Shown here piece after piece: positions 50,349-63,342 of a DNA stretch of 64,000 nucleotides. Below the pieces are notes generated by a model. The model saw only the letters and a program-made list of their open reading frames with translations. It made no database searches and was not told where the DNA came from. Source of the DNA: an uncultured Thermoplasmata archaeon. GTDB lineage: Archaea > Thermoplasmatota > Thermoplasmata > Lutacidiplasmatales > UBA184. Made by a program: the position numbers and the translations under genes. Within the stretch, counting starts at the first letter, position 1; every line of letters starts with the position of its first letter. The DNA is taken from contig CAWBEU010000007.1 of NCBI GenBank assembly GCA_963787975.1, positions 21,640 to 85,639 on the forward strand, written 5' to 3'.

Positions 50349-50957
50349 ATGAGACTCAAGGATGGGCTCGACCCGCTCCTTGGGAGCCCGACCAAGCTCC
50401 GGTTACTGCGGAAGCTTCTGGCCACCCCCGGCCGTCGCTGGACGGGACGGGAACTCGCTGCAGCGGCTCGGGTCTCTACGGCGCAGGCCGCTAGAGACCT
50501 GGACGACTTCCTCCAGGTCGGTATCCTCCTTCGCGACGTGCAGGGGCGGTCCTACGCTTGGAGCGTGAACGAGGGACACGTTCTCGCACCCACGCTGTCT
50601 CAACTGTTCCATGCGGAGGCCTCGCTCCGGGACGCGCTCGCCCGCGACGTGGGAGGCCTCCTCGCAGGAGTGCCGGTCCGCCGGGCCCGGCTATTCGGTT
50701 CCGTGGCGCGGGGGGACGAGCGGGCCGACAGTGACGTTGACCTGTTCGTCCAGGTGGGAACGGCCGACGAACGAGCCTCGGTCGACTCAGCGCTAGAGAA
50801 GATCCGCGACCGGGTGTGGATCCGCTTCGGCAACCCGCTGGCCGCGTTGGTCTATACCGACGCCGAGACCCGACACCCGAGGAACCCTTCGCTACTGGGA
50901 GCGATCGATCGAGAGGGGGTCGAAGTGACCCCGGGGGGTGCGGGTGGCGCGGATTGA
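50349..50957 (+). CDS. Winged-HTH + minimal nucleotidyltransferase (MNT) antitoxin
   Basis: WTGRELAAAARVSTAQA (HTH); LFGSVARGDERADSDVDL (MNT). Confidence 0.88.
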   Translation: MRLKDGLDPLLGSPTKLRLLRKLLATPGRRWTGRELAAAARVSTAQAARDLDDFLQVGILLRDVQGRSYAWSVNEGHVLAPTLSQLFHAEASLRDALARDVGGLLAGVPVRRARLFGSVARGDERADSDVDLFVQVGTADERASVDSALEKIRDRVWIRFGNPLAALVYTDAETRHPRNPSLLGAIDREGVEVTPGGAGGAD

Positions 50958-51339
50958 AGTCGTCGCAAGAGAGCGCAGTGCGGTCTATCTGCAACGCGCC
51001 GAGGAGTTTGCCTGGCAGATGGACCACGCCGCCTCGGTCCGCGCCTGGAACTCGGTCGGGTTGCTCGGGGTTCATTGCGTGATCTCCGCGTGCGATAGCC
51101 TGACCGTCGCGCTCTCGGGCCAGCGATGGAGCGGACAGGATCATGCGGGCGTCCATGGGATGGTTCGATCGCTGAAGCTCCCGGACGCGGACGCCGCGCT
51201 GCGGCAGGTCGCCGAGGTCTTGGACAGCAAGAATCGGGTCGAGTCCGAGGCCCGTGCGTTTACGGAGAAGGAGGCTGAGGAGCTCCGCAAGCGGGCCCGA
51301 CGCGTGCTGGGCTGGGTGAGGTCTCACCTTTCGGGCTGA
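50938..51339 (+). CDS. HEPN-domain protein (partner of the MNT)
   Basis: Overlaps the MNT; YLQRAEEF, ISACDSL, QDHAG, LDSKNRVE, A..LRKRARRVLGWV. Confidence 0.78.
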   Translation: MRVARIEVVARERSAVYLQRAEEFAWQMDHAASVRAWNSVGLLGVHCVISACDSLTVALSGQRWSGQDHAGVHGMVRSLKLPDADAALRQVAEVLDSKNRVESEARAFTEKEAEELRKRARRVLGWVRSHLSG

Positions 51340-52109: not shown

Positions 52110-55100
52110 ATGGTCCTTCCAAGGCGACTGAACCGGTCCCACCTCGCGTCGCGCGAGATCTCAAGCTCGCGGGCGCTCGGGAAGCCGCTCGCGGTAGTGA
52201 TCCTCGCCGTGGTGTTGGTGGTATCGGGAGCCGGGACCTACGTTGCGTTTTCCCATCCCATAACCACATGCGCCCCCGCCAACGGTCCTGTCTGCAGTGC
52301 CAGTACCAACACCCACGATCTGGGTGTCCTGGTGCCGTTGCGCACTACCCAAGAGAACGTCCCGATCCCCGTGACCGCGATCGTGCCGTCTCAGTACCAG
52401 GCCTCGAGCTTCTTGTTCACCTTTGGCGACGGGACCACCAACCACACCACGTCTCCCACCGTCATCCACACCTACACGCACACGGGGGTGTACATCATCT
52501 CGGTGTCCGCGGTGGTGAACGGCGTCGTTCACGACAATGAACACGCCCTCACGACCGTTTCAGTAGCCACGGACTATGCGACGGACTCTCTCGGGACCGT
52601 TCCGACCGCGCTCGGGGCCCTCGTGTCCAATTCCACGTCAATGGTCAATCCGACGTCGCTGCTCCAAATCGGAGAGACTCTCACGTTTCAAGGCATGTAT
52701 ACCCTCCCCCCAACGAACCCTCTCTACACGCTCGCTACGCCGACGATCGTCTCCCCGGGCGGCACGGTCAGTGGCGCCACCAATACCTCTCAGACTGCTC
52801 AGGCGTCGTTCACCTACGCGAAGGCCGGCACGTACCAGGTCACGTTCGTGGGCGCCGGGGTCTCCACTGGAAACCCGACAGCCTACGGGAACTTCACCTG
52901 GACCGTAGAGGTCGCTCCCTCGGGTCAGAACTACGGCTTCGCGGGCTCCCCCACGACGGTGGACCCGCATCCGGGGCAGATCGTGGCCTATGAAAGCTAC
53001 TCCGGCGGAGCCACCACGTTCGACCCGGCGATCGACTACGACCTGGCCGGGTACGAGGTCGTGGGCAACATCTACCAGACCCTGATCCTCTACAACGGCA
53101 GCGCGGCGGGACCCAGTCCGAACGATTATGTGCCCATGATCGCGACGTGCGTCCCCGGCAGCGCGCAGTGCGCCTCCTTGTACGGAGGAGACAACCTGCA
53201 GCAGGGAACCAACTACACCTTCGTCATCAGCAGCGCGCCCCAGTTCTATGACCCGTACGACGCCGGACACCCGTCATGGGGAGTCTACCCCTCGGACGTG
53301 ATGTTCTCTGTCCTTCGCACGCTGGCGTTCTCGCTCCTACCGGCTCCCCTGTTCACGAATGGTTGGATCATCACCCAGTCGTTGCTCCCGGGCGGAAATG
53401 CCAGCTGGGACACCGGCCTCCACGCGACGTTCAACAACACCCCGCAGTGGATGTTCGCTGCGATGACCATCAATGAGTCGGGAGCCTGTCCGAGCATTGC
53501 GATCACGGACACGGCGCTCTACCACGGATGCATCACGTTCCACGCGAACGCCAGCAACAGCTATGGAAACGCGTGGCCGTTCTTCCTGGAGCTCATTTCG
53601 GACCAGCAGGGGAGCAGCGTCGTCCCCTGCGGCTGGTTCAGCATGCCCGCCCAGGGACAGGGGATCCCCGGCTGGACCGCGTCGAACGCCTCCGACCAGG
53701 GGCCGCATCCGTGCCGGGCCCCGACACCGGCTCAGATCACGACGCTCTCTTCCCCGTCGTTCTACACCGGGTTTGACAGCTGGGAGCAGAACTACTACAA
53801 CGCGGTCACGGGCGTGTACGCGGGCAACACCCAGTGGCGCCCCGCCGGGTCCGGTCCCTACTACCTCTCCGGGTTCCAGCTCGGCGAGAGCTACGACCTC
53901 GCCGCCAACCCCGCGTACCACTCGAACCCGTTCTGCACCTGGTCGGCATGTCAGCCCGTGGCCGGAGACTACGTGCCGATCGTCCGCGTGGTCTGGGAGT
54001 CCGACCCAACCCTCGGGGAACAGTCGATGGCGTCCGGCGTCGCCGACTTCGCGAGCTTCCCGTCGACCGATACCGGTTTCCTGCTCCAGCTGATTCAGGC
54101 TGGGAAGACCAATGCTCAGGTGGTCCCCTCCCTGGCCATCAATACGCTCTTTTTCGCCCTCAACTTCAGCAAGTCGCGCGAGAACACCTACACGTCGAAC
54201 CCGGTGACCATCCCTTCCGACTTCTTCAGCTACCTGGGCATGCGCCAGTTCTTCGTTCACGCCTACCCGTACGCGTCGGTCCAGTCCACCGTCAACACCG
54301 TCGACGGAATCCAGTATGGCTTCGACTTCGGCGGGGCGATCCCCGATTTCATGGGCAACTACTATCCCCACGACATCAACTGGCCGAGCGGCAACCCCTG
54401 CACGAACGCCAGCGACACGAGTTGCCCCGCGTACTGGTGGGCGGCCATGAACACCCATGGGCCGTACTACGACCCCGAAGCGGCCTCCTGCACGACCGCC
54501 AACCCCTGCAAATTCCCCGTCTACAATTCCCAGGGGGACACCGCGGAGGACGAGCGAATTCCGCTGTTCATCGGGTCCGTGGCCAATGTGACCGGAGGGG
54601 CGATCCAGATGAGCCTCGTGGACATCCCGGCCACCACGCTCGCCCTCGAAGGCACGGCCGGAATCGGGACGAATGCCCTTCCCATGGAAACCGGGGTGTG
54701 GTACCCCGACTACCCGGACCCGACCGACTACGCCTATCCGTTCTACTATCCCGACGCGACCTTCACTCTCCCCGAGGCCACCGCCGAGGGGCTCGGCTCC
54801 TCCTACGTGACCTCGACGCCCAACGCCTTCAACTCGACGATGCCCGGGGGCGCCGCCTGCCCCACGGACTACAACTTCTACGTGAACATCTCGGCGGCCG
54901 GATTCCCCGTGGTCCCCCAGTCCTGCCAGGGCGCGGCGTACGACGCGATGATCGGGCTCATGACCGCGGCCGGGTCCCTCCCGGCGAACTCCCTTCGGGT
55001 GCTCCAGTTCGCCCAGGCGGAAACGATCGCCAACGAGCTGGGAATCATGATCAGCGAGTTCCAGAACGACCTCGTCATCCCGTATGCCGCCTGGATCCAC

Positions 55101-55190
55101 CCGTCCTCGGTGTCCACGAACGTGGTCTACGCCGGGTTCTACTGGTGGTGGCTCGTGAACGGGAACGGCGTTCTCTCGCCGCCTTCCTAA
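52110..55190 (+). CDS. Peptide/nickel ABC substrate-binding protein (family 5) with N-terminal PKD domain
   Basis: TM anchor, FTFGDGT...HTYTHTGVY (PKD), TFDPAIDYD..GYEV..NIYQTLILY, SGPYYL, W.PDYPDPTDY. Confidence 0.85.
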   Translation: MVLPRRLNRSHLASREISSSRALGKPLAVVILAVVLVVSGAGTYVAFSHPITTCAPANGPVCSASTNTHDLGVLVPLRTTQENVPIPVTAIVPSQYQASSFLFTFGDGTTNHTTSPTVIHTYTHTGVYIISVSAVVNGVVHDNEHALTTVSVATDYATDSLGTVPTALGALVSNSTSMVNPTSLLQIGETLTFQGMYTLPPTNPLYTLATPTIVSPGGTVSGATNTSQTAQASFTYAKAGTYQVTFVGAGVSTGNPTAYGNFTWTVEVAPSGQNYGFAGSPTTVDPHPGQIVAYESYSGGATTFDPAIDYDLAGYEVVGNIYQTLILYNGSAAGPSPNDYVPMIATCVPGSAQCASLYGGDNLQQGTNYTFVISSAPQFYDPYDAGHPSWGVYPSDVMFSVLRTLAFSLLPAPLFTNGWIITQSLLPGGNASWDTGLHATFNNTPQWMFAAMTINESGACPSIAITDTALYHGCITFHANASNSYGNAWPFFLELISDQQGSSVVPCGWFSMPAQGQGIPGWTASNASDQGPHPCRAPTPAQITTLSSPSFYTGFDSWEQNYYNAVTGVYAGNTQWRPAGSGPYYLSGFQLGESYDLAANPAYHSNPFCTWSACQPVAGDYVPIVRVVWESDPTLGEQSMASGVADFASFPSTDTGFLLQLIQAGKTNAQVVPSLAINTLFFALNFSKSRENTYTSNPVTIPSDFFSYLGMRQFFVHAYPYASVQSTVNTVDGIQYGFDFGGAIPDFMGNYYPHDINWPSGNPCTNASDTSCPAYWWAAMNTHGPYYDPEAASCTTANPCKFPVYNSQGDTAEDERIPLFIGSVANVTGGAIQMSLVDIPATTLALEGTAGIGTNALPMETGVWYPDYPDPTDYAYPFYYPDATFTLPEATAEGLGSSYVTSTPNAFNSTMPGGAACPTDYNFYVNISAAGFPVVPQSCQGAAYDAMIGLMTAAGSLPANSLRVLQFAQAETIANELGIMISEFQNDLVIPYAAWIHPSSVSTNVVYAGFYWWWLVNGNGVLSPPS

Positions 55191-55251: not shown

Positions 55252-56406
55252 TTAGCGCCGGAGGCGGGGGTCGAGGGCGTCGCGCAGTCCGTCGGCGAGG
55301 AAGTTCACGCTGATCGCGAACAGGAAGACCGTCAGCCCGGGGAACAGGATCTGCCACCAGGGGAACGTGCACACGATCCCGGGCGTAGCGCAGTCGAGGA
55401 CGAAGGTCTCGAGGTTCTGCACCGCGATCGCGGAGAGCGTGCCCCACTCAGGGAACGGCGTGGACGGCCAGATCGGGAAGCCGAGAAAGACGATGACCCC
55501 GAGCAGCAGCGGCACGGTCCCGACGTCGAGGGAGAACTGGACCAGGACCGGATACATCACGTTCGGGAGGATGTGTTTCCGGAGGATCCGGCCCGGGCCC
55601 GCGCCGCCGGCCTTGGCGGCCTCGACGTACTTCTGCTCCCGAACGACGAGCGATTGTCCCCGGACCAGCCGGGTGTAGAACGGCCACCAGGTGACGACGA
55701 AGGCGCCCACCAAGATGCCCACGCGCCCCAGGAACGTGAGCGAGTTGCCGAGCGCCGTCGAGAGGACGGCGAGGAGCACGAGCACGAGCAGCAGGCCGGG
55801 GATGGAGAGGAAGATGTCCGTCACCCGCATGATGGTCTCGTCCACGACCCCCCCGTGGAACCCCGACACGGCGCCGAGAATCATGCCGATCAACGCGCCG
55901 CTCCCCACAATCGTCACGGAGATCCCGAGCGACCAGGGAGCCCCTTTGATGAGCCCGGTCGCCATGTTGTAGAACAGCCCGTCCGCCGGGGTCGACGAGA
56001 GAGACCCCAGAGGTAACGGGCCGATCGAGAGCGGCAACAGCGAGACCGTGGGCGGAACCAGCGACTTTTCGAACGAAGACACCAGATAGCACCCGGCCCC
56101 CGGCGAGAGCTGGGGCGCGGCGTAGGTGCAGACCTTGACGCAGTTTGTCGCCGAGGAAAGGTAGGTTCCGCAGTAGAGGGTCATCGACGTGGACGGCCCC
56201 GGGTAAAAGAACGAACCCAGCGCTACCAGGACGAAGAACAGCAGGAGCCCGAGCCCGACCATCGCGAGCGTGTTCTGCTTGAGGGTGTGCCATGTCCGCC
56301 GGAACTGGTCGATGCGCGCGCGGAAGGAACGTGCCTGAGCGCTCTCCTTCTCGGCCTCTGCGCCCTTTTGCGGGCCGGATGGGGAAGTCTCGGAGGTATC
56401 CTGCAC
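55252..56406 (-). CDS. Peptide ABC transporter permease (OppC/DppC-type)
   Basis: DETIMRVTDIFLSIPGLLL, EQKYVEAAKAGGAG..RILRKHILPN, DGLRDALDPR. Confidence 0.92.
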   Translation of the reverse strand: MQDTSETSPSGPQKGAEAEKESAQARSFRARIDQFRRTWHTLKQNTLAMVGLGLLLFFVLVALGSFFYPGPSTSMTLYCGTYLSSATNCVKVCTYAAPQLSPGAGCYLVSSFEKSLVPPTVSLLPLSIGPLPLGSLSSTPADGLFYNMATGLIKGAPWSLGISVTIVGSGALIGMILGAVSGFHGGVVDETIMRVTDIFLSIPGLLLVLVLLAVLSTALGNSLTFLGRVGILVGAFVVTWWPFYTRLVRGQSLVVREQKYVEAAKAGGAGPGRILRKHILPNVMYPVLVQFSLDVGTVPLLLGVIVFLGFPIWPSTPFPEWGTLSAIAVQNLETFVLDCATPGIVCTFPWWQILFPGLTVFLFAISVNFLADGLRDALDPRLRR

Positions 56407-56410
56407 GATC

Positions 56411-57615
56411 TCAGCCCAGCCTCACCCGGGGGTCCAGGTAAGCGTACAGGATGTCCACGACGATGTTCGCGATGACCACGATGACCGTGAACACGATCGT
56501 CGTTCCGAAGATGACGCCGAAATCGTACGGAGGCCGTACCGAGTAGGTGAAGAGAAGGCCAATTCCCCTCAGGCCGAAGATGAGCTCGGTCACGGGGAAC
56601 CCGGCGATGAAGAAAGCGAAGGTGAGCCCCAGTACGGTGAGGCTCACGTTGAACGCATTTCGTCCCGCATGCCGGGCGATCACCTGGCGTTCCGGGACCC
56701 CGATCGCGCGAGCGTGCTTGATGTAGTCGAGGCTCAGCACCTCGAGCATGCTGTTGCGGACGAACCGGAGGATCCTGCGACAGAGCCGTACGCGACGGTG
56801 AAGGCTGGGAGAAGGAGCCGGCGAATCGTGTCGAGCGCGATCAGGGGCTGGCCATGGAACAGGGCGTCGACCGTCGGAAAGTGGGTCGGGGAGGTCTGCC
56901 CATACTGGCCGATCCAACTGGGCTGCACTCCCCCATACGGAGGACAGGCGTACCCGGTCGGGTCGGGGGGAAGCCCGTACCACAGGTCCCACGGCGTCGC
57001 GGTCCCTCCGCAGATGTGGGTGAACCCCCCGGTGAGAAGGACCGCGCCGAGCAAGGTCCCGCCCGCGAGCAGGAACGTCGGAAGCGCGAAGCCCGAGAAG
57101 GAGAGCAGCCGGGCCCCCTGGTCGAACGGCTGATTACGATGGACGGCGGCTCGGTTCCCGATCGGAAAGGAAAGAAACCAGATCATGACGAGGGAGAGGA
57201 TCGCCAGCTCCAAGGTGTACGGAAGGTACCAGGACAGCACAGTAAGGACCGGAATCCCCCCAGGAATGCCGACCGTGGGCAGGAGGCTGTGCGCCGACGT
57301 GTACCCCCACTGTCCCGTCAAGAGATTGAACATGTAGTGAGCCCACTGCACCGGTACGGGCTGGTTGAGTCCCAGTTCCCGGATGCCATTCCAGTACCAG
57401 GGGTTAGGGCAGAATCGGGAGCCGTTCGGCGATGTGAAGCCAAAACGGGAGCAAAGGACGTACGGCCCGGACCCGAACTTCGATTGTCCGAATTGAGAGT
57501 CGAGCCGCTGGCCGACCGGAATGGCGCTGATCATGAGGAACGTGATCGTCATCACGCCCAGCAGGACCGGGACCAGCAGCAGGACCCTCCGGAGGACGTA
57601 GACGTAGAGCTTCAA
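56411..57615 (-). CDS. Peptide ABC transporter permease (OppB/DppB-type); -1 frameshift near 56772
   Basis: YVLRRVLLLVPVLLGV, LPYTLEL; shifted frame RFVRNSMLEVLSLDYIKHARAIG...YAYLDPRVR. Confidence 0.9.
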
Positions 57616-57937
57616 CCGGGCTCACCGCCACCCTGGCCGATCCAGGTCGTCGTGACCTCCGACGGGTCCCCTTCCCATCATTCGTCCGCTGGCCCCACGG
57701 GGCGCTTGGGTTTGACGACCTTCGGGTCTTTCTTGCACCTTAGAAACCGTCGAAGGGTTCGATAGTCTACCCCTACAAGAACAGTAGGGGTGCCACCCTG
57801 CTCGACCTTTCGCCACCGGAGGGAAGGCAATGCCGTAAACCGGAAACTCGGCTATCCTGCCAGAGCGTCTGGACGGGGGGAGCAGAAGTCTCGCTAGGTA
57901 AGTTTACTTGCATCCGTAGGTGCGGTCCGGTCGAGAC

Positions 57938-59356
57938 ATGACCCCGACGTCCGACGCCGTGCTGGACGATATCCTCTCGGTCCGTGGCGGCCGATTATTC
58001 GTGGAAGAGGTGGCGGCCGAGGAGCTCGCCCGTCGCTTCGGTACTCCGATCTACGTGATGTCCGAGAACGGCCTGAGGCGCCGAGTTCGGAGGTACATCC
58101 AGGCGCTCAAGGAACGCTGGCCAGAGGGGCCCGTCCACATTCTCCCTTCAATTAAGGCAAACTATTCACTTGCGCTCCGACACGTGCTGACCCAAGAGGG
58201 AGTGGGTTGCGACACGTTCGGCCTCCCCGAACTGTTCGCTGCCCTTCAGAGTCGTGTCCGGCCCGAGTTGATCTCCGTCAACGGTTCGAGCAAGGACCGG
58301 CCCTTGGTGGAGCGGGCGCTTCGGGCGGGAGCACGGATTACCCTCGACAGTCCACGAGAGGTAGCCCTCGTCCGGGAGGTGGCTCGCGAACTCCACCTCC
58401 GCGCCCGGGTACGGTTTCGACTGCGGCCGCTGTACCAGGATCTCGAGCAGTCGTCCGACTTTCATGACGAGGAGGTGTCCATCCGAGACGCCGCCCAGGC
58501 GTACAAGCCCGGTATTCCCACCGAGGAACTGCTCAAGATCGGTCCGGATGCCATTACCGCCCCGGAACTCGACGTGACCGGCGTGATGGTCCACCTCGGT
58601 CGGCACAGCACCGACCTCGAGGTCTGGCGACGGATGGCGAGCGGCGTAGGAGGGCTGATCGGCGAGCTCCACGACGCGTGGGGTGGCTGGGAGCCCCACG
58701 AGATCGACTTGGGTGGCGGGTTCGCATCGCCACGCGACCCTACCGCGCGAGCGACCAGCCGGGGCAGCAAGAGAGCTGTCGGGGCTCTGGCGCCCACGGT
58801 CGAGGACTACGCGCAAGTCCTGACCGACGGTCTCCGCGGCGCCCTCACCAACGCGCGAATCGCGACGCAGGGAAAGGTTCTCGAGGTGGAGCCAGGACGA
58901 GGACTCTACGCCGACGCGGGTCTCCACCTCACCACGGTTCGCAACATCAAATCACAGACCGAGCCGGTCCCCCGAACCTGGGTGGAAGTAGATACCACCG
59001 AGATGTTCCTCCTCGACACCCTGATCGAGAGGAACCGATGGACTCCCATCGTCACGGAACGGGCCGGGGCCTCCGCCGTGCTGACGGCGGATATCGTCGG
59101 GATCTCGTGTGGCTTCGACGTCATCGTCCCCGACGCGCGACTCCCTCTAGTAACGGTGGGCGATCATATCGCCTTTCTCGACACGGGCGCCTACCAAGAC
59201 GCGACGGCGGCGAACTTCAACGCCATGCCGCGGCCGGCGACGATCCTCGTGAACGGTTCTGAGGCGGAAGTAATCAAGCAGGCAGAGACGATCGAGGACG
59301 TCTTCCGACGGGACATTGTTCCGCCCCGCCTGCAGGCCCCCCCGCTCGCAAGGTAA
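57938..59356 (+). CDS. PLP-dependent group IV decarboxylase (diaminopimelate decarboxylase-like), substrate uncertain
   Basis: FGTPIYV, PSIKANY (PLP Lys), DLGGGF, EPGR, DTGAY...NFN.MPRPA. Confidence 0.85.
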   Translation: MTPTSDAVLDDILSVRGGRLFVEEVAAEELARRFGTPIYVMSENGLRRRVRRYIQALKERWPEGPVHILPSIKANYSLALRHVLTQEGVGCDTFGLPELFAALQSRVRPELISVNGSSKDRPLVERALRAGARITLDSPREVALVREVARELHLRARVRFRLRPLYQDLEQSSDFHDEEVSIRDAAQAYKPGIPTEELLKIGPDAITAPELDVTGVMVHLGRHSTDLEVWRRMASGVGGLIGELHDAWGGWEPHEIDLGGGFASPRDPTARATSRGSKRAVGALAPTVEDYAQVLTDGLRGALTNARIATQGKVLEVEPGRGLYADAGLHLTTVRNIKSQTEPVPRTWVEVDTTEMFLLDTLIERNRWTPIVTERAGASAVLTADIVGISCGFDVIVPDARLPLVTVGDHIAFLDTGAYQDATAANFNAMPRPATILVNGSEAEVIKQAETIEDVFRRDIVPPRLQAPPLAR

Positions 59357-59361
59357 CGAGG

Positions 59362-59892
59362 ATGGCGCGCGGGCTGGACCATGTTTCGGTGACGGTGGCC
59401 GACCTCGAACGCTCCCTCCTTTTCTATCAGGGGCTCCTGAAGATCCCCGTCCTGGGTCGCGGGGAAGACGCGGGACCCCCGGTACGCGGGCCGGCGGGTG
59501 TCGCCCATAGCCGGTTTCGCTACGCCGACCTCGAACTCGGGGGTGGACAGATCCTGGAGCTCCTCCAGTACCTTCAACCGAAAAGGAGGCCACTCCGTCC
59601 GACTCCGTTTGCTCCCGGTGGGGGACACATCGGCCTTCGCGTCGTGGATCTGGACGCGGCCTTGAGGCGTCTCCGTGCAGCGGGCGTGCTTCCGCAATTC
59701 GACCCGATCCAGGTGGTTACCCCCACCTGGTGGGCGGGCGCGCGAGTGGTGTACGTGTCCGACCCCGATGGAACAACGGTAGAACTGGTCGAGCGACCTG
59801 GTTCGCCTCAGTCTACGCTCCGCCGAGAGAAAACGGCGAAAGGGAGCCACAGCCGCCGGAAACATTCGGCTGGCGCAGCTAGGGTACCCTGA
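59362..59892 (+). CDS. VOC-family protein (methylmalonyl-CoA epimerase/glyoxalase-like)
   Basis: DHVSVTVADLERSLLFY, LELLQY, GHIGLRV, YVSDPDGTTVELVE; starts 5 nt after the decarboxylase stop. Confidence 0.88.
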   Translation: MARGLDHVSVTVADLERSLLFYQGLLKIPVLGRGEDAGPPVRGPAGVAHSRFRYADLELGGGQILELLQYLQPKRRPLRPTPFAPGGGHIGLRVVDLDAALRRLRAAGVLPQFDPIQVVTPTWWAGARVVYVSDPDGTTVELVERPGSPQSTLRREKTAKGSHSRRKHSAGAARVP

Positions 59893-61490: not shown

Positions 61491-61667
61491 CGGTTCCCTC
61501 CGGTCCGCGAGGTGGAGGGGGTGGAACCCAGATTGCGCCCATCAACGCGCGGTGCCGGACACGCTCCGCGCGAGGCGACGGCGTTGGAGCGGAGAGCCCG
61601 GGACCCGCAGTCTGATCGGTGCGGGGCGCGAGACGCGGGGTTTATCCTCCGAAACCCATCCCCCTGT

Positions 61668-62267
61668 ATGCCCGACGCCTGGTCGATGAAGGGTGAATAT
61701 TTCGAAGCCTGCAACTGTGAGGTCGCCTGCCCATGCATTTTCATGAGCGACCCAACGGGGGAGACCTGCACCGTCCTTCTGGGCTACCACGTCGAGAAGG
61801 GAGTCTCGGGGACGCACCCCCTGGACGGGCTCAGCTTCGCCATCGCCGCGTTCTCCCCTGGAAACATGCTCAAGAACAAATGGGAGGGAGCGATCTATCT
61901 GGACCAGCGCGCCACGGAGGCCCAGCGGAAGGCGCTGGAAACGATACTGACGGGTCAGGCCGGCGGCATCTTCGGAGTGCTGGCTCCGTTCTTTGGAAAG
62001 GTCCATGGGATCCGCTCGGTTCCCATCGAGTTCCACGTCGACGGGAAGAAGCGGTCGCTGAAAATTCCCGGCGTGGCCGAAATGCGAGTTCAGGCTATGA
62101 CCGACTCGGACGGGAAGGAGGTCAGGATCTTGAACGCTCCGTTTGGGGCGGTGGCGAACGTCTCGGTGGCCAAGTCCGAGAAGCTCAGCCTTACCGACTA
62201 CGGGTGGAAATGGGACGTCGCCGAGAAGAACAGCTTCGTCGCTCCCTTCTCAGCGCGAGGCCCATAG
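61668..62267 (+). CDS. DUF1326 domain protein
   Basis: WSMKGEYFEACNCEVACPC...PTGETC. Confidence 0.85.
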   Translation: MPDAWSMKGEYFEACNCEVACPCIFMSDPTGETCTVLLGYHVEKGVSGTHPLDGLSFAIAAFSPGNMLKNKWEGAIYLDQRATEAQRKALETILTGQAGGIFGVLAPFFGKVHGIRSVPIEFHVDGKKRSLKIPGVAEMRVQAMTDSDGKEVRILNAPFGAVANVSVAKSEKLSLTDYGWKWDVAEKNSFVAPFSARGP

Positions 62268-62294
62268 CCCGACGACCGGATCGCTTGCGGGCGG

Positions 62295-63083
62295 TTACCG
62301 GAGCCCATAGGCGCCGGCGATGGCCAGGGCCGAAACCGCGGCCCCGACTGACAGGGTCCCGAGGCCTATCCCGCGGGTGATCCAGAGGGTGTTCCCCCAC
62401 ACCTTCTCGGCGAGCACGAGCCCGGTGACCGCTCCCATCCAGAGGAGGCTCATGGCTCCCGAGACAAAGACCACGAGCATGAGCAGCCAGCAGCATCCCA
62501 GGCAGAAGTACGAATGGGCGAGGCCCATGCGAACTGCTCCCTGACGACCGGGCCGCCACCGGCTCAGGAAAAAGCCGATCGGGGACTGACAGCCCTCGAG
62601 GCAGTATCGCTTCCAGGTAGTGAACTGGTAGACCCCGGCGGCGACCAGGATCGCACCCGGTACTAGGATGAGCCAGCCTGACAAGCCGCCCATCAGACCG
62701 AGACCCATCACCACGACGAGGACGATCGCCGCGAAGATGGCCCAGACCAGGAGGTAGCTGAACGTGAACAGGGCGACGCGCGCGTTCCCTTCTCGCGGCA
62801 AGGAGTCGGCGTGGGCAAACCTCCGGTAGACGAGGACCATCGGGATCGCCGACGGGAGCATCATCGCGGTCATCATGACCCCCGTCAGGGAAACATAGGC
62901 CAGTGTCGCGATGGGCGCGGCGCCGGCCAGCTCGTTGCCGAGGAGCGTCATGAGGTCGTTGGACGTCAGTACGGTCGCGACCCATGCGGCGGCGACGACG
63001 GCCCCGAAGGCCACGAGGACGAGGACAGCGGGGCGCGCAAGCCGGGGAGTAACCGCCCGGGCAGTCCCAAAGGAAGTCGACAT
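62295..63083 (-). CDS. DUF2182 predicted metal-binding integral membrane protein
   Basis: MMTAMMLPS, AGVYQFT.WK..CL..C..P, G..CLGCCWLLML. Confidence 0.88.
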   Translation of the reverse strand: MSTSFGTARAVTPRLARPAVLVLVAFGAVVAAAWVATVLTSNDLMTLLGNELAGAAPIATLAYVSLTGVMMTAMMLPSAIPMVLVYRRFAHADSLPREGNARVALFTFSYLLVWAIFAAIVLVVVMGLGLMGGLSGWLILVPGAILVAAGVYQFTTWKRYCLEGCQSPIGFFLSRWRPGRQGAVRMGLAHSYFCLGCCWLLMLVVFVSGAMSLLWMGAVTGLVLAEKVWGNTLWITRGIGLGTLSVGAAVSALAIAGAYGLR

Positions 63084-63342
63084 GACGACCCGCCTCCCAG
63101 CAATTCGCGTCGGGCGCGCGCTCAGCCAGCCAGTGCCTGACCCCAAATAGAACCTTCCGCGCGATGCTCGCCAGGTTTCCCGATCTAGGATCGGCCCTCG
63201 ACGTCCTTTGACCCAAGAATCGGCAAAGACGCAATCGAGATTGCACCTCCAGTCCAGTGGCGCCTCGGTCCCGGAGAACGTCTCTGCCCTCTAAGAGGTG
63301 AGATCGACACTTTCGTAGCCGCGATCGATCGCGGCGAGGGCA

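Follow-up and report, generated by a model that had tools for sequence, protein, structure and literature searches.

About ten specificities are known among the group IV decarboxylases, in which the Arg343 that binds the distal carboxylate in diaminopimelate (DAP) decarboxylase (DAPDC, LysA) gives way in L/ODC, ADC and CASDC to a specificity-helix aspartate that marks basic substrates (PMC7857480). An acidic residue following the catalytic cysteine is used by L/ODC, ADC and DAPDC and is absent from FigC alongside a larger N-substituted substrate (PMC7857480). The D-Orn/D-Lys decarboxylase DokD pairs with a PLP racemase, and its stereospecificity is altered by Y430F according to the title of a study cited in the same source (PMC13397332). 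The decarboxylase family described here combines two of these features, the helix aspartate and the absence of a post-cysteine acid, and is encoded beside a VOC enzyme.

The window analysed is a stretch of 64,000 nucleotides from a 2.14-Mb metagenome-assembled genome (G000) that is 85.7% complete and whose nearest relatives carry the label Thermoplasmata. The decarboxylase gene (57938–59356, + strand) starts with ATG and encodes 472 amino acids; its stop codon ends at 59356 and the VOC gene (59362–59892, +, 176 aa) begins with ATG at 59362, which leaves the 5-nt gap that the first-pass annotation had reported. The operon had also been described there as divergent from peptide permeases, and this arrangement is indeed present, as an oppB/dppB-like permease gene (56411–57615, −) starts at 57615 on the opposite strand, 322 nt from the decarboxylase, and is followed by an oppC/dppC-like permease (55252–56406, −; both from profile matches) and by a PKD-domain family-5 solute-binding protein (52110–55190, +; Pfam) that converges on the permeases. 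The oppB-like neighbour, which lies outside the conserved module, is frameshifted by a 1-nt deletion near 56773 in comparison to the intact orthologue of locus L026 (84% DNA identity), reflecting either a sequencing error or a recent pseudogene. A 30-nt intergenic element (57756–57785) is near-identical in L026–L028 although its flanks have diverged, and a looser copy adjoins oppB in L029 and L031, where a ligase gene has been inserted; since this copy stays with oppB despite the insertion, the element is likely part of the opp promoter. A candidate archaeal TATA-like box occurs at 57903–57910 (+), approximately 30 nt upstream of the decarboxylase start codon, and elements loosely similar to it also precede the gene in L027–L031. 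Elsewhere in the window, an HTH/nucleotidyltransferase-like gene overlaps a small HEPN-like gene (50349–51339, +) in what looks, by sequence, like an MNT-HEPN toxin-antitoxin pair, and convergent DUF1326 and PpoB2-type membrane genes (61659–63146) adjoin a CBS-pair protein.

Pfam places both the PF02784 barrel and the PF00278 sheet domain in the 472-aa protein, and its AlphaFold2 model (pLDDT 90) was matched by Foldseek to DAPDC and DOKDC with TM scores of about 0.8, DAPDC ranking first. As judged from the sequence and this model, it is a group IV (alanine-racemase-fold) PLP decarboxylase. The catalytic set is intact, and because the PLP lysine K73, the stacking histidine H219, E318 and R321 of the EPGR motif, C391 and the GAY tyrosine Y419 are all invariant across 80 orthologous loci, the protein is very likely an active enzyme. 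The three variant motifs singled out by the first-pass annotation were all located, namely PSIKAN with the Schiff-base Lys73 (aa 70–75; 58145–58162, +), HLGRHS, where His219 is retained and the serine of HIGSQ has become an invariant Arg222 (aa 219–224; 58592–58609, +), and SCGFDV, where the catalytic Cys391 is followed by no acidic residue (aa 390–395; 59105–59122, +). These motifs are family traits rather than drift, as K73, S390, C391, F393 and D394 are conserved in 120 of 120 homologues, R222 and S71 in 119 and G392 in 118. The altered specificity motifs were thus real and family-wide, but the more telling changes had been missed: Asp360 and Glu364 occupy the specificity helix (59015–59029, +) in place of DAPDC Arg343 and Tyr347 and are found in 79–80 of the 80 orthologues, while Phe427 (59216–59218, +) is found in all 80. 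Alignments to 2p3e and 2yxx further indicated that the cysteine loop lacks one residue relative to DAPDC (C-x-x-D versus C-x-x-x-D). Other conserved residues of the pocket are E355, F94, Y189, F357 and F393, besides Arg222 where other enzymes have serine. K190 and D394 correspond to the inter-subunit salt bridge of ODC. The roles assigned to individual residues were derived by aligning sequences.

The VOC protein consists of a PF00903 domain of approximately 148 aa and a basic tail. Its metal ligands H7, E66, H89 and E141 are invariant in alignments, and both the glyoxalase fold and the His/Glu/His/Glu ligand set were supported by a structural model and Foldseek. The best PDB sequence matches were glyoxalase I and methylmalonyl-CoA epimerase (MMCE) at about 25% identity, and the metal site resembles that of Ni-glyoxalase I. 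The best score against the GloA, MMCE and YaeR models was 39 bits in comparison to a cut-off of 140, and all cut-offs were missed. The VOC protein forms a subfamily of its own, which tracks the decarboxylase. At L102:11344-11774, on an otherwise complete chromosome, a frameshift separates the VOC gene into two frames.

The extent of the coupling was determined for the 80 orthologous loci, which were picked on the decarboxylase alone, with counts made by profile and tblastn searches. The VOC gene was directly downstream at 51 loci, directly upstream at 11 and fused at six, placing it within 400 bp of the decarboxylase or in one fused gene with it at 68 loci; at five more it was about 800 bp away with an SDR gene in the locus and at one it was 8 kb away, giving 74 loci with a VOC gene nearby and six, confined to two lineages, where it was absent. 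Conservation of the linkage, on which the proposal of the first-pass annotation depended, was seen in 18 of 19 lineages (70% clustering). Sequence identities of the two proteins co-vary (Spearman 0.54, or 0.41 among distant pairs, with the caveat for both that related sequences are not independent), and both genes occur in the same seven of eight genus relatives, with G007 possessing neither. When 400 genomes were drawn evenly from Actinomycetota, the phylum of one actinomycete carrier, a VOC gene adjoined or was fused to the decarboxylase at all six core matches (five in addition to the centre genome) and at none of the canonical lysA loci. Further decarboxylase-VOC fusions were identified among distant representatives, and deeper family members often retain a VOC gene nearby. 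Overall, the coupling is very strong, near-obligate and conserved far beyond chance. A separate subfamily (L135–L144, P0124, P0127 and P0137) carries a partly hydrophobic insertion of 35–45 aa after the GGG motif and has no VOC gene within about 1.5 kb, and in L144 of this subfamily a small membrane protein and an SDR take its place.

Mapping of the genes surrounding the pair at 85 loci identified PotD-like binding proteins (21), SDRs (12), APC permeases (10) and FrlD-like proteins (10) as the most frequent neighbours, followed by PuuR-like regulators (7), FrlB-like proteins (4) and agmatine deiminase, putrescine carbamoyltransferase-like proteins and PuuA-like ligases (3 each). By our own count, genes for polyamine or agmatine uptake and catabolism lie beside the pair in nine of 19 lineages and are commoner than peptide ABC genes. 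Compact units included TetR-VOC-SDR-decarboxylase-permease, VOC-decarboxylase-carbamoyltransferase-antiporter-agmatine deiminase, and decarboxylase-VOC opposite agmatine deiminase and an amidase. Peptide ABC genes of family 5 occur next to the pair in only about three of the 19 lineages, as well as at two single loci, which weakens the earlier suggestion that the substrate is released from imported peptides. Five genus members retain the divergent peptide permeases, but these are absent beside the deepest member, L032, so that they represent local synteny with only partial outside support, and a peptide ABC transporter was rejected as a defining part of the module. A CaiC-like CoA ligase gene lies directly upstream in three genus members (L029–L031); most loci, this window among them, have no such gene.

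One Gaiellales-rich lineage has the pair in a fructoselysine-type operon with the gene string LacI-frlB-like-frlD-like-aminotransferase-oppACBA-decarboxylase-VOC-aldose epimerase. Its representative at L094:445-12653, with LacI, FrlB-like and FrlD-like genes, a class III aminotransferase, two family-5 binding proteins with permeases, the decarboxylase, the VOC gene and an aldose epimerase, is a candidate Amadori-product utilisation operon of Gaiellales-like genomes. The FrlB-like gene of this lineage was named from sequence motifs. No matches to FrlB, FrlD or PotD were found in G000. Among other gene contexts, a LysW-type lysine/arginine biosynthesis cluster is found about 2 kb away from the pair at L032:10133-14999, and in L036–L048 the pair abuts an arg operon. 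A plasmid of Halioglobus pacificus RR3-57, a cultured carrier of a sister subfamily whose enzyme differs in the specificity helix, encodes an SDR, a decarboxylase-SDR fusion, a VOC protein and a protein resembling the N,N-dimethylformamidase beta subunit (L108:9122-14322), with genes for a TonB receptor and an amidinotransferase-like protein close by.

G000 itself encodes a pyruvoyl arginine decarboxylase, so plain agmatine supply needs no group IV decarboxylase in this host, and a housekeeping role as the agmatine source for tRNA modification was rejected for this reason. Homologues of agmatine deiminase, carbamoyltransferase and carbamate kinase are also encoded, unlinked to the pair, and together with the pyruvoyl enzyme this gene content fits a specialised feeder role. 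Within the archaeal phylum the orthologue is restricted to a single genus, with none in 400 other sampled genomes, and the family occurs mainly in soil Actinomycetota, Dormibacterota and Chloroflexota. The nearest ESM Atlas cluster has 1968 members, of which 95% are bacterial, and our quick tree places the archaeal branch within the bacterial ones, at modest support. The GC content of the pair matches that of the host. The archaeal genus has probably acquired the pair from soil bacteria, as suggested by these sequence relationships.

The stereochemistry of the substrate was approached through a mapping to DokD made via the DokD-like sequence P0254 and not a true DokD sequence, in which D360 corresponds to D356, C391-G392 to C387-D388 and F427 to Y430. 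Tyrosine occupies the last of these positions in DAPDC and DokD, which act at D-centres, and phenylalanine occupies it in two ODC-like references. The argument from Y430 draws on the cited title mentioned above and on PDB titles. D-specificity is disfavoured because Phe427 replaces the DokD tyrosine, as in L-ODCs, and the D-amino acid option raised by the first-pass annotation has accordingly lost ground. From the pocket residues we infer that the substrate would be an L-amino acid whose side chain is bulky and cationic.

The reading that we favour, and to which we would give about an even chance on the sequence evidence, is that the pair forms a catabolic two-enzyme module for a side-chain-modified L-basic amino acid derived from arginine or lysine. 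In the first step, the α-amine of the substrate would be bound at K73, CO2 lost and the intermediate reprotonated at C391, yielding a substituted agmatine- or cadaverine-like amine. D360 and E364 may anchor the positively charged side chain, and space for a bulky substituent may come from the short, acid-free cysteine loop. In the other step, which may precede or follow the first, metal-enediolate acid/base chemistry of the VOC enzyme would either isomerise a substituent that bears a carbonyl or hydroxyl group or take it off, so that the amine could enter agmatine/putrescine catabolism. Glycation adducts of arginine and lysine are the single most likely substrate class, although as a specific assignment this is itself unlikely, and hydroxylated or N-alkylated arginine and lysine make up the remaining candidates. 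The boldest version of this reading, likewise unlikely, is a microbial pathway dedicated to basic amino acids that have been glycated. A purpose-evolved decarboxylase and a VOC deglycase would act on methylglyoxal-hydroimidazolone arginine, carboxy(m)ethyl-lysine/arginine or Amadori-type adducts and release agmatine or cadaverine together with a sugar or hydroxy acid. Against the favoured reading, the neighbours vary by lineage (polyamine, Amadori, CaiC-like ligase, TMADH-like, SDR) with each context coming from related genomes, the Amadori context is confined to the single Gaiellales-rich lineage, and the six loci without VOC have to be accounted for. A trimethyllysine/betaine reading, based on the aromatic pocket and on Rieske, TMADH-like and CaiC-like neighbours, was folded into the modified-lysine class and had no specific support.

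Among the rival explanations, a divergent but ordinary meso-DAP decarboxylase could account for DAPDC being the best PDB and NCBIfam match, for the label given to the decarboxylase in databases and for its being the only group IV gene in G000, but we consider this hardly credible. The TIGR01048 (lysA) score of 210.5 bits falls below the cut-off of 297.9, and alignment to the M. jannaschii enzyme shows Arg343 replaced by Asp360, Tyr347 by Glu364 and the post-cysteine glutamate by Gly392. DapB was not found in nine genus genomes (82–93% complete), whereas relatives with canonical lysA possess dapB, and the DHDPS- and DapF-like matches of G000 sit in proline-racemase and sugar-acid clusters. Of five bacterial carriers, three also have a distinct LysA whose score exceeds the cut-off. 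Phylogenetic analysis, which the first-pass annotation had proposed, resolved the family as one clade (SH-aLRT 100; quick tree without bootstrap) nested with support of 98 in a wider uncharacterised radiation that excludes LysA, the ODC-like sequences and the DokD-like P0254; the references included P0254, standing in for DokD, and the ODC-like L153 and L154. LysA identity was therefore rejected, in agreement with the first-pass annotation, and since the enzyme is not a normal DAPDC and its VOC linkage is conserved, with fusions in several lineages and matching presence and absence in the genus, the two-step pathway on a non-standard substrate that it had put forward is well founded. It is important to note that P0254 scores above the lysA cut-off, at 355 bits, although it lacks the DAP-binding arginine, indicating that lysA annotation over-calls. 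The surrounding radiation (P0151–P0270, L109 and L110) is broad, and its specificity helices are varied.

A plain catabolic decarboxylase of L-arginine (or L-lysine or L-ornithine), feeding the agmatine deiminase route while the VOC enzyme clears a reactive aldehyde or dicarbonyl side product, is a serious though unlikely alternative that agrees with the acidic pocket, with the L-type F427 and with the agmatine deiminase, putrescine carbamoyltransferase-like or N-carbamoylputrescine amidase genes adjoining the pair in four lineages (L046, L098/L100, L065 and L127). It does not explain the loss of the post-cysteine acid, which is used by L/ODC, ADC and DAPDC (PMC7857480) and also by DokD, nor what such an enzyme would add to the pyruvoyl arginine decarboxylase already in G000, and a clean-up role accounts poorly for repeated gene fusion. 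Less probable is a DokD-like D-amino-acid decarboxylase whose D-substrate is supplied by the VOC protein acting as a racemase or epimerase, even though the enzyme descends from the DAPDC/DokD side of its family, DOKDC comes directly behind DAPDC in the Foldseek ranking, the Arg-to-Asp swap is shared with DokD D356 and VOC epimerases exist, MMCE being among the matches. The Y430 position is phenylalanine at all 80 loci, where the cited title on Y430F bears, the score against the DokD model NF052544 is 85.1 bits in comparison to a cut-off of 700 and P0254 falls outside the clade. To our knowledge, the known VOC epimerases act on acyl-CoA thioesters and not on free amino acids, which also counts against a supply of D-substrate. 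Thioester chemistry could in turn be reconciled with BtrK-like action on an amino-acyl-CoA or carrier-bound substrate and an MMCE-like VOC epimerase, given the CaiC-like ligase directly upstream in L029–L031 and MMCE among the VOC matches. We judge this improbable, as the ligase is missing at most loci including the one studied here, no carrier protein recurs and the polyamine-type transporters point to a small amine or amino acid in free form. The module for a modified L-arginine or L-lysine remains our preferred reading.

In summary, both folds are well known, while the open-access literature searched appears to describe neither the subfamily nor the pairing: no report of a group IV decarboxylase coupled to a VOC enzyme was found there, and searches on hydroimidazolone catabolism and on trimethyllysine decarboxylase returned nothing relevant. 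Members of the family routinely receive the annotation diaminopimelate decarboxylase, from which one would wrongly conclude that these archaea are lysine prototrophs. Enzymes degrading carboxymethyl-lysine have been described as hypothesised and unconfirmed (PMC9501902), and if the substrate is a glycation adduct the pair would bear on that open question. The natural decarboxylase-VOC fusions, for example L101 and P0118, offer a single-protein test object.

In comparison to known systems, LysA (M. jannaschii 1TWI; TIGR01048) is the best sequence and structure match, with the same fold, PLP and catalytic residues at about 28–30% identity; the family differs in the distal-carboxylate Arg/Tyr being Asp/Glu, the post-cysteine Glu being lost, the HIGSQ Ser being Arg and the D-centre Tyr being Phe, in the lack of a DAP pathway in the host genus and in its VOC partner. 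Scores against the SpeA ADC (20.8 versus 624 bits) and FslC (36 versus 500) models were far below their cut-offs, and the ODC-like L153 and L154 carry Cys-Asp and fall outside the clade. CASDC/NspC (3N29), whose CLAGD motif has no acid after the catalytic cysteine, is very distant at 24.6 bits to the family profile, with TIGR01047 (NspC) unmatched by the decarboxylase at E 0.001 and no carboxyspermidine dehydrogenase recognised among the recurring neighbours. It is nevertheless alike in its helix aspartate (D272; PMC7857480) and acts on an N-substituted basic amino acid. FigC/FslC, SbnH and BtrK of AR-fold clade 2 are likewise DAPDC-related and retooled for N-substituted or tethered substrates, with FigC also lacking the post-cysteine acid (PMC7857480), but they sit in biosynthetic siderophore or antibiotic clusters, whereas the present family has an acidic helix and catabolic neighbours. 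At about 25% identity, the VOC partner has the fold and the His/Glu/His/Glu site of Ni-type glyoxalase I (E. coli GloA) and of methylmalonyl-CoA epimerase. DokD is likewise DAPDC-derived, has the helix aspartate (D356, equivalent to D360) and is encoded with amino-acid transporters and one partner enzyme; it keeps C387-D388 and Y430, whereas the family described here has C391-G392, F427 and a VOC partner.
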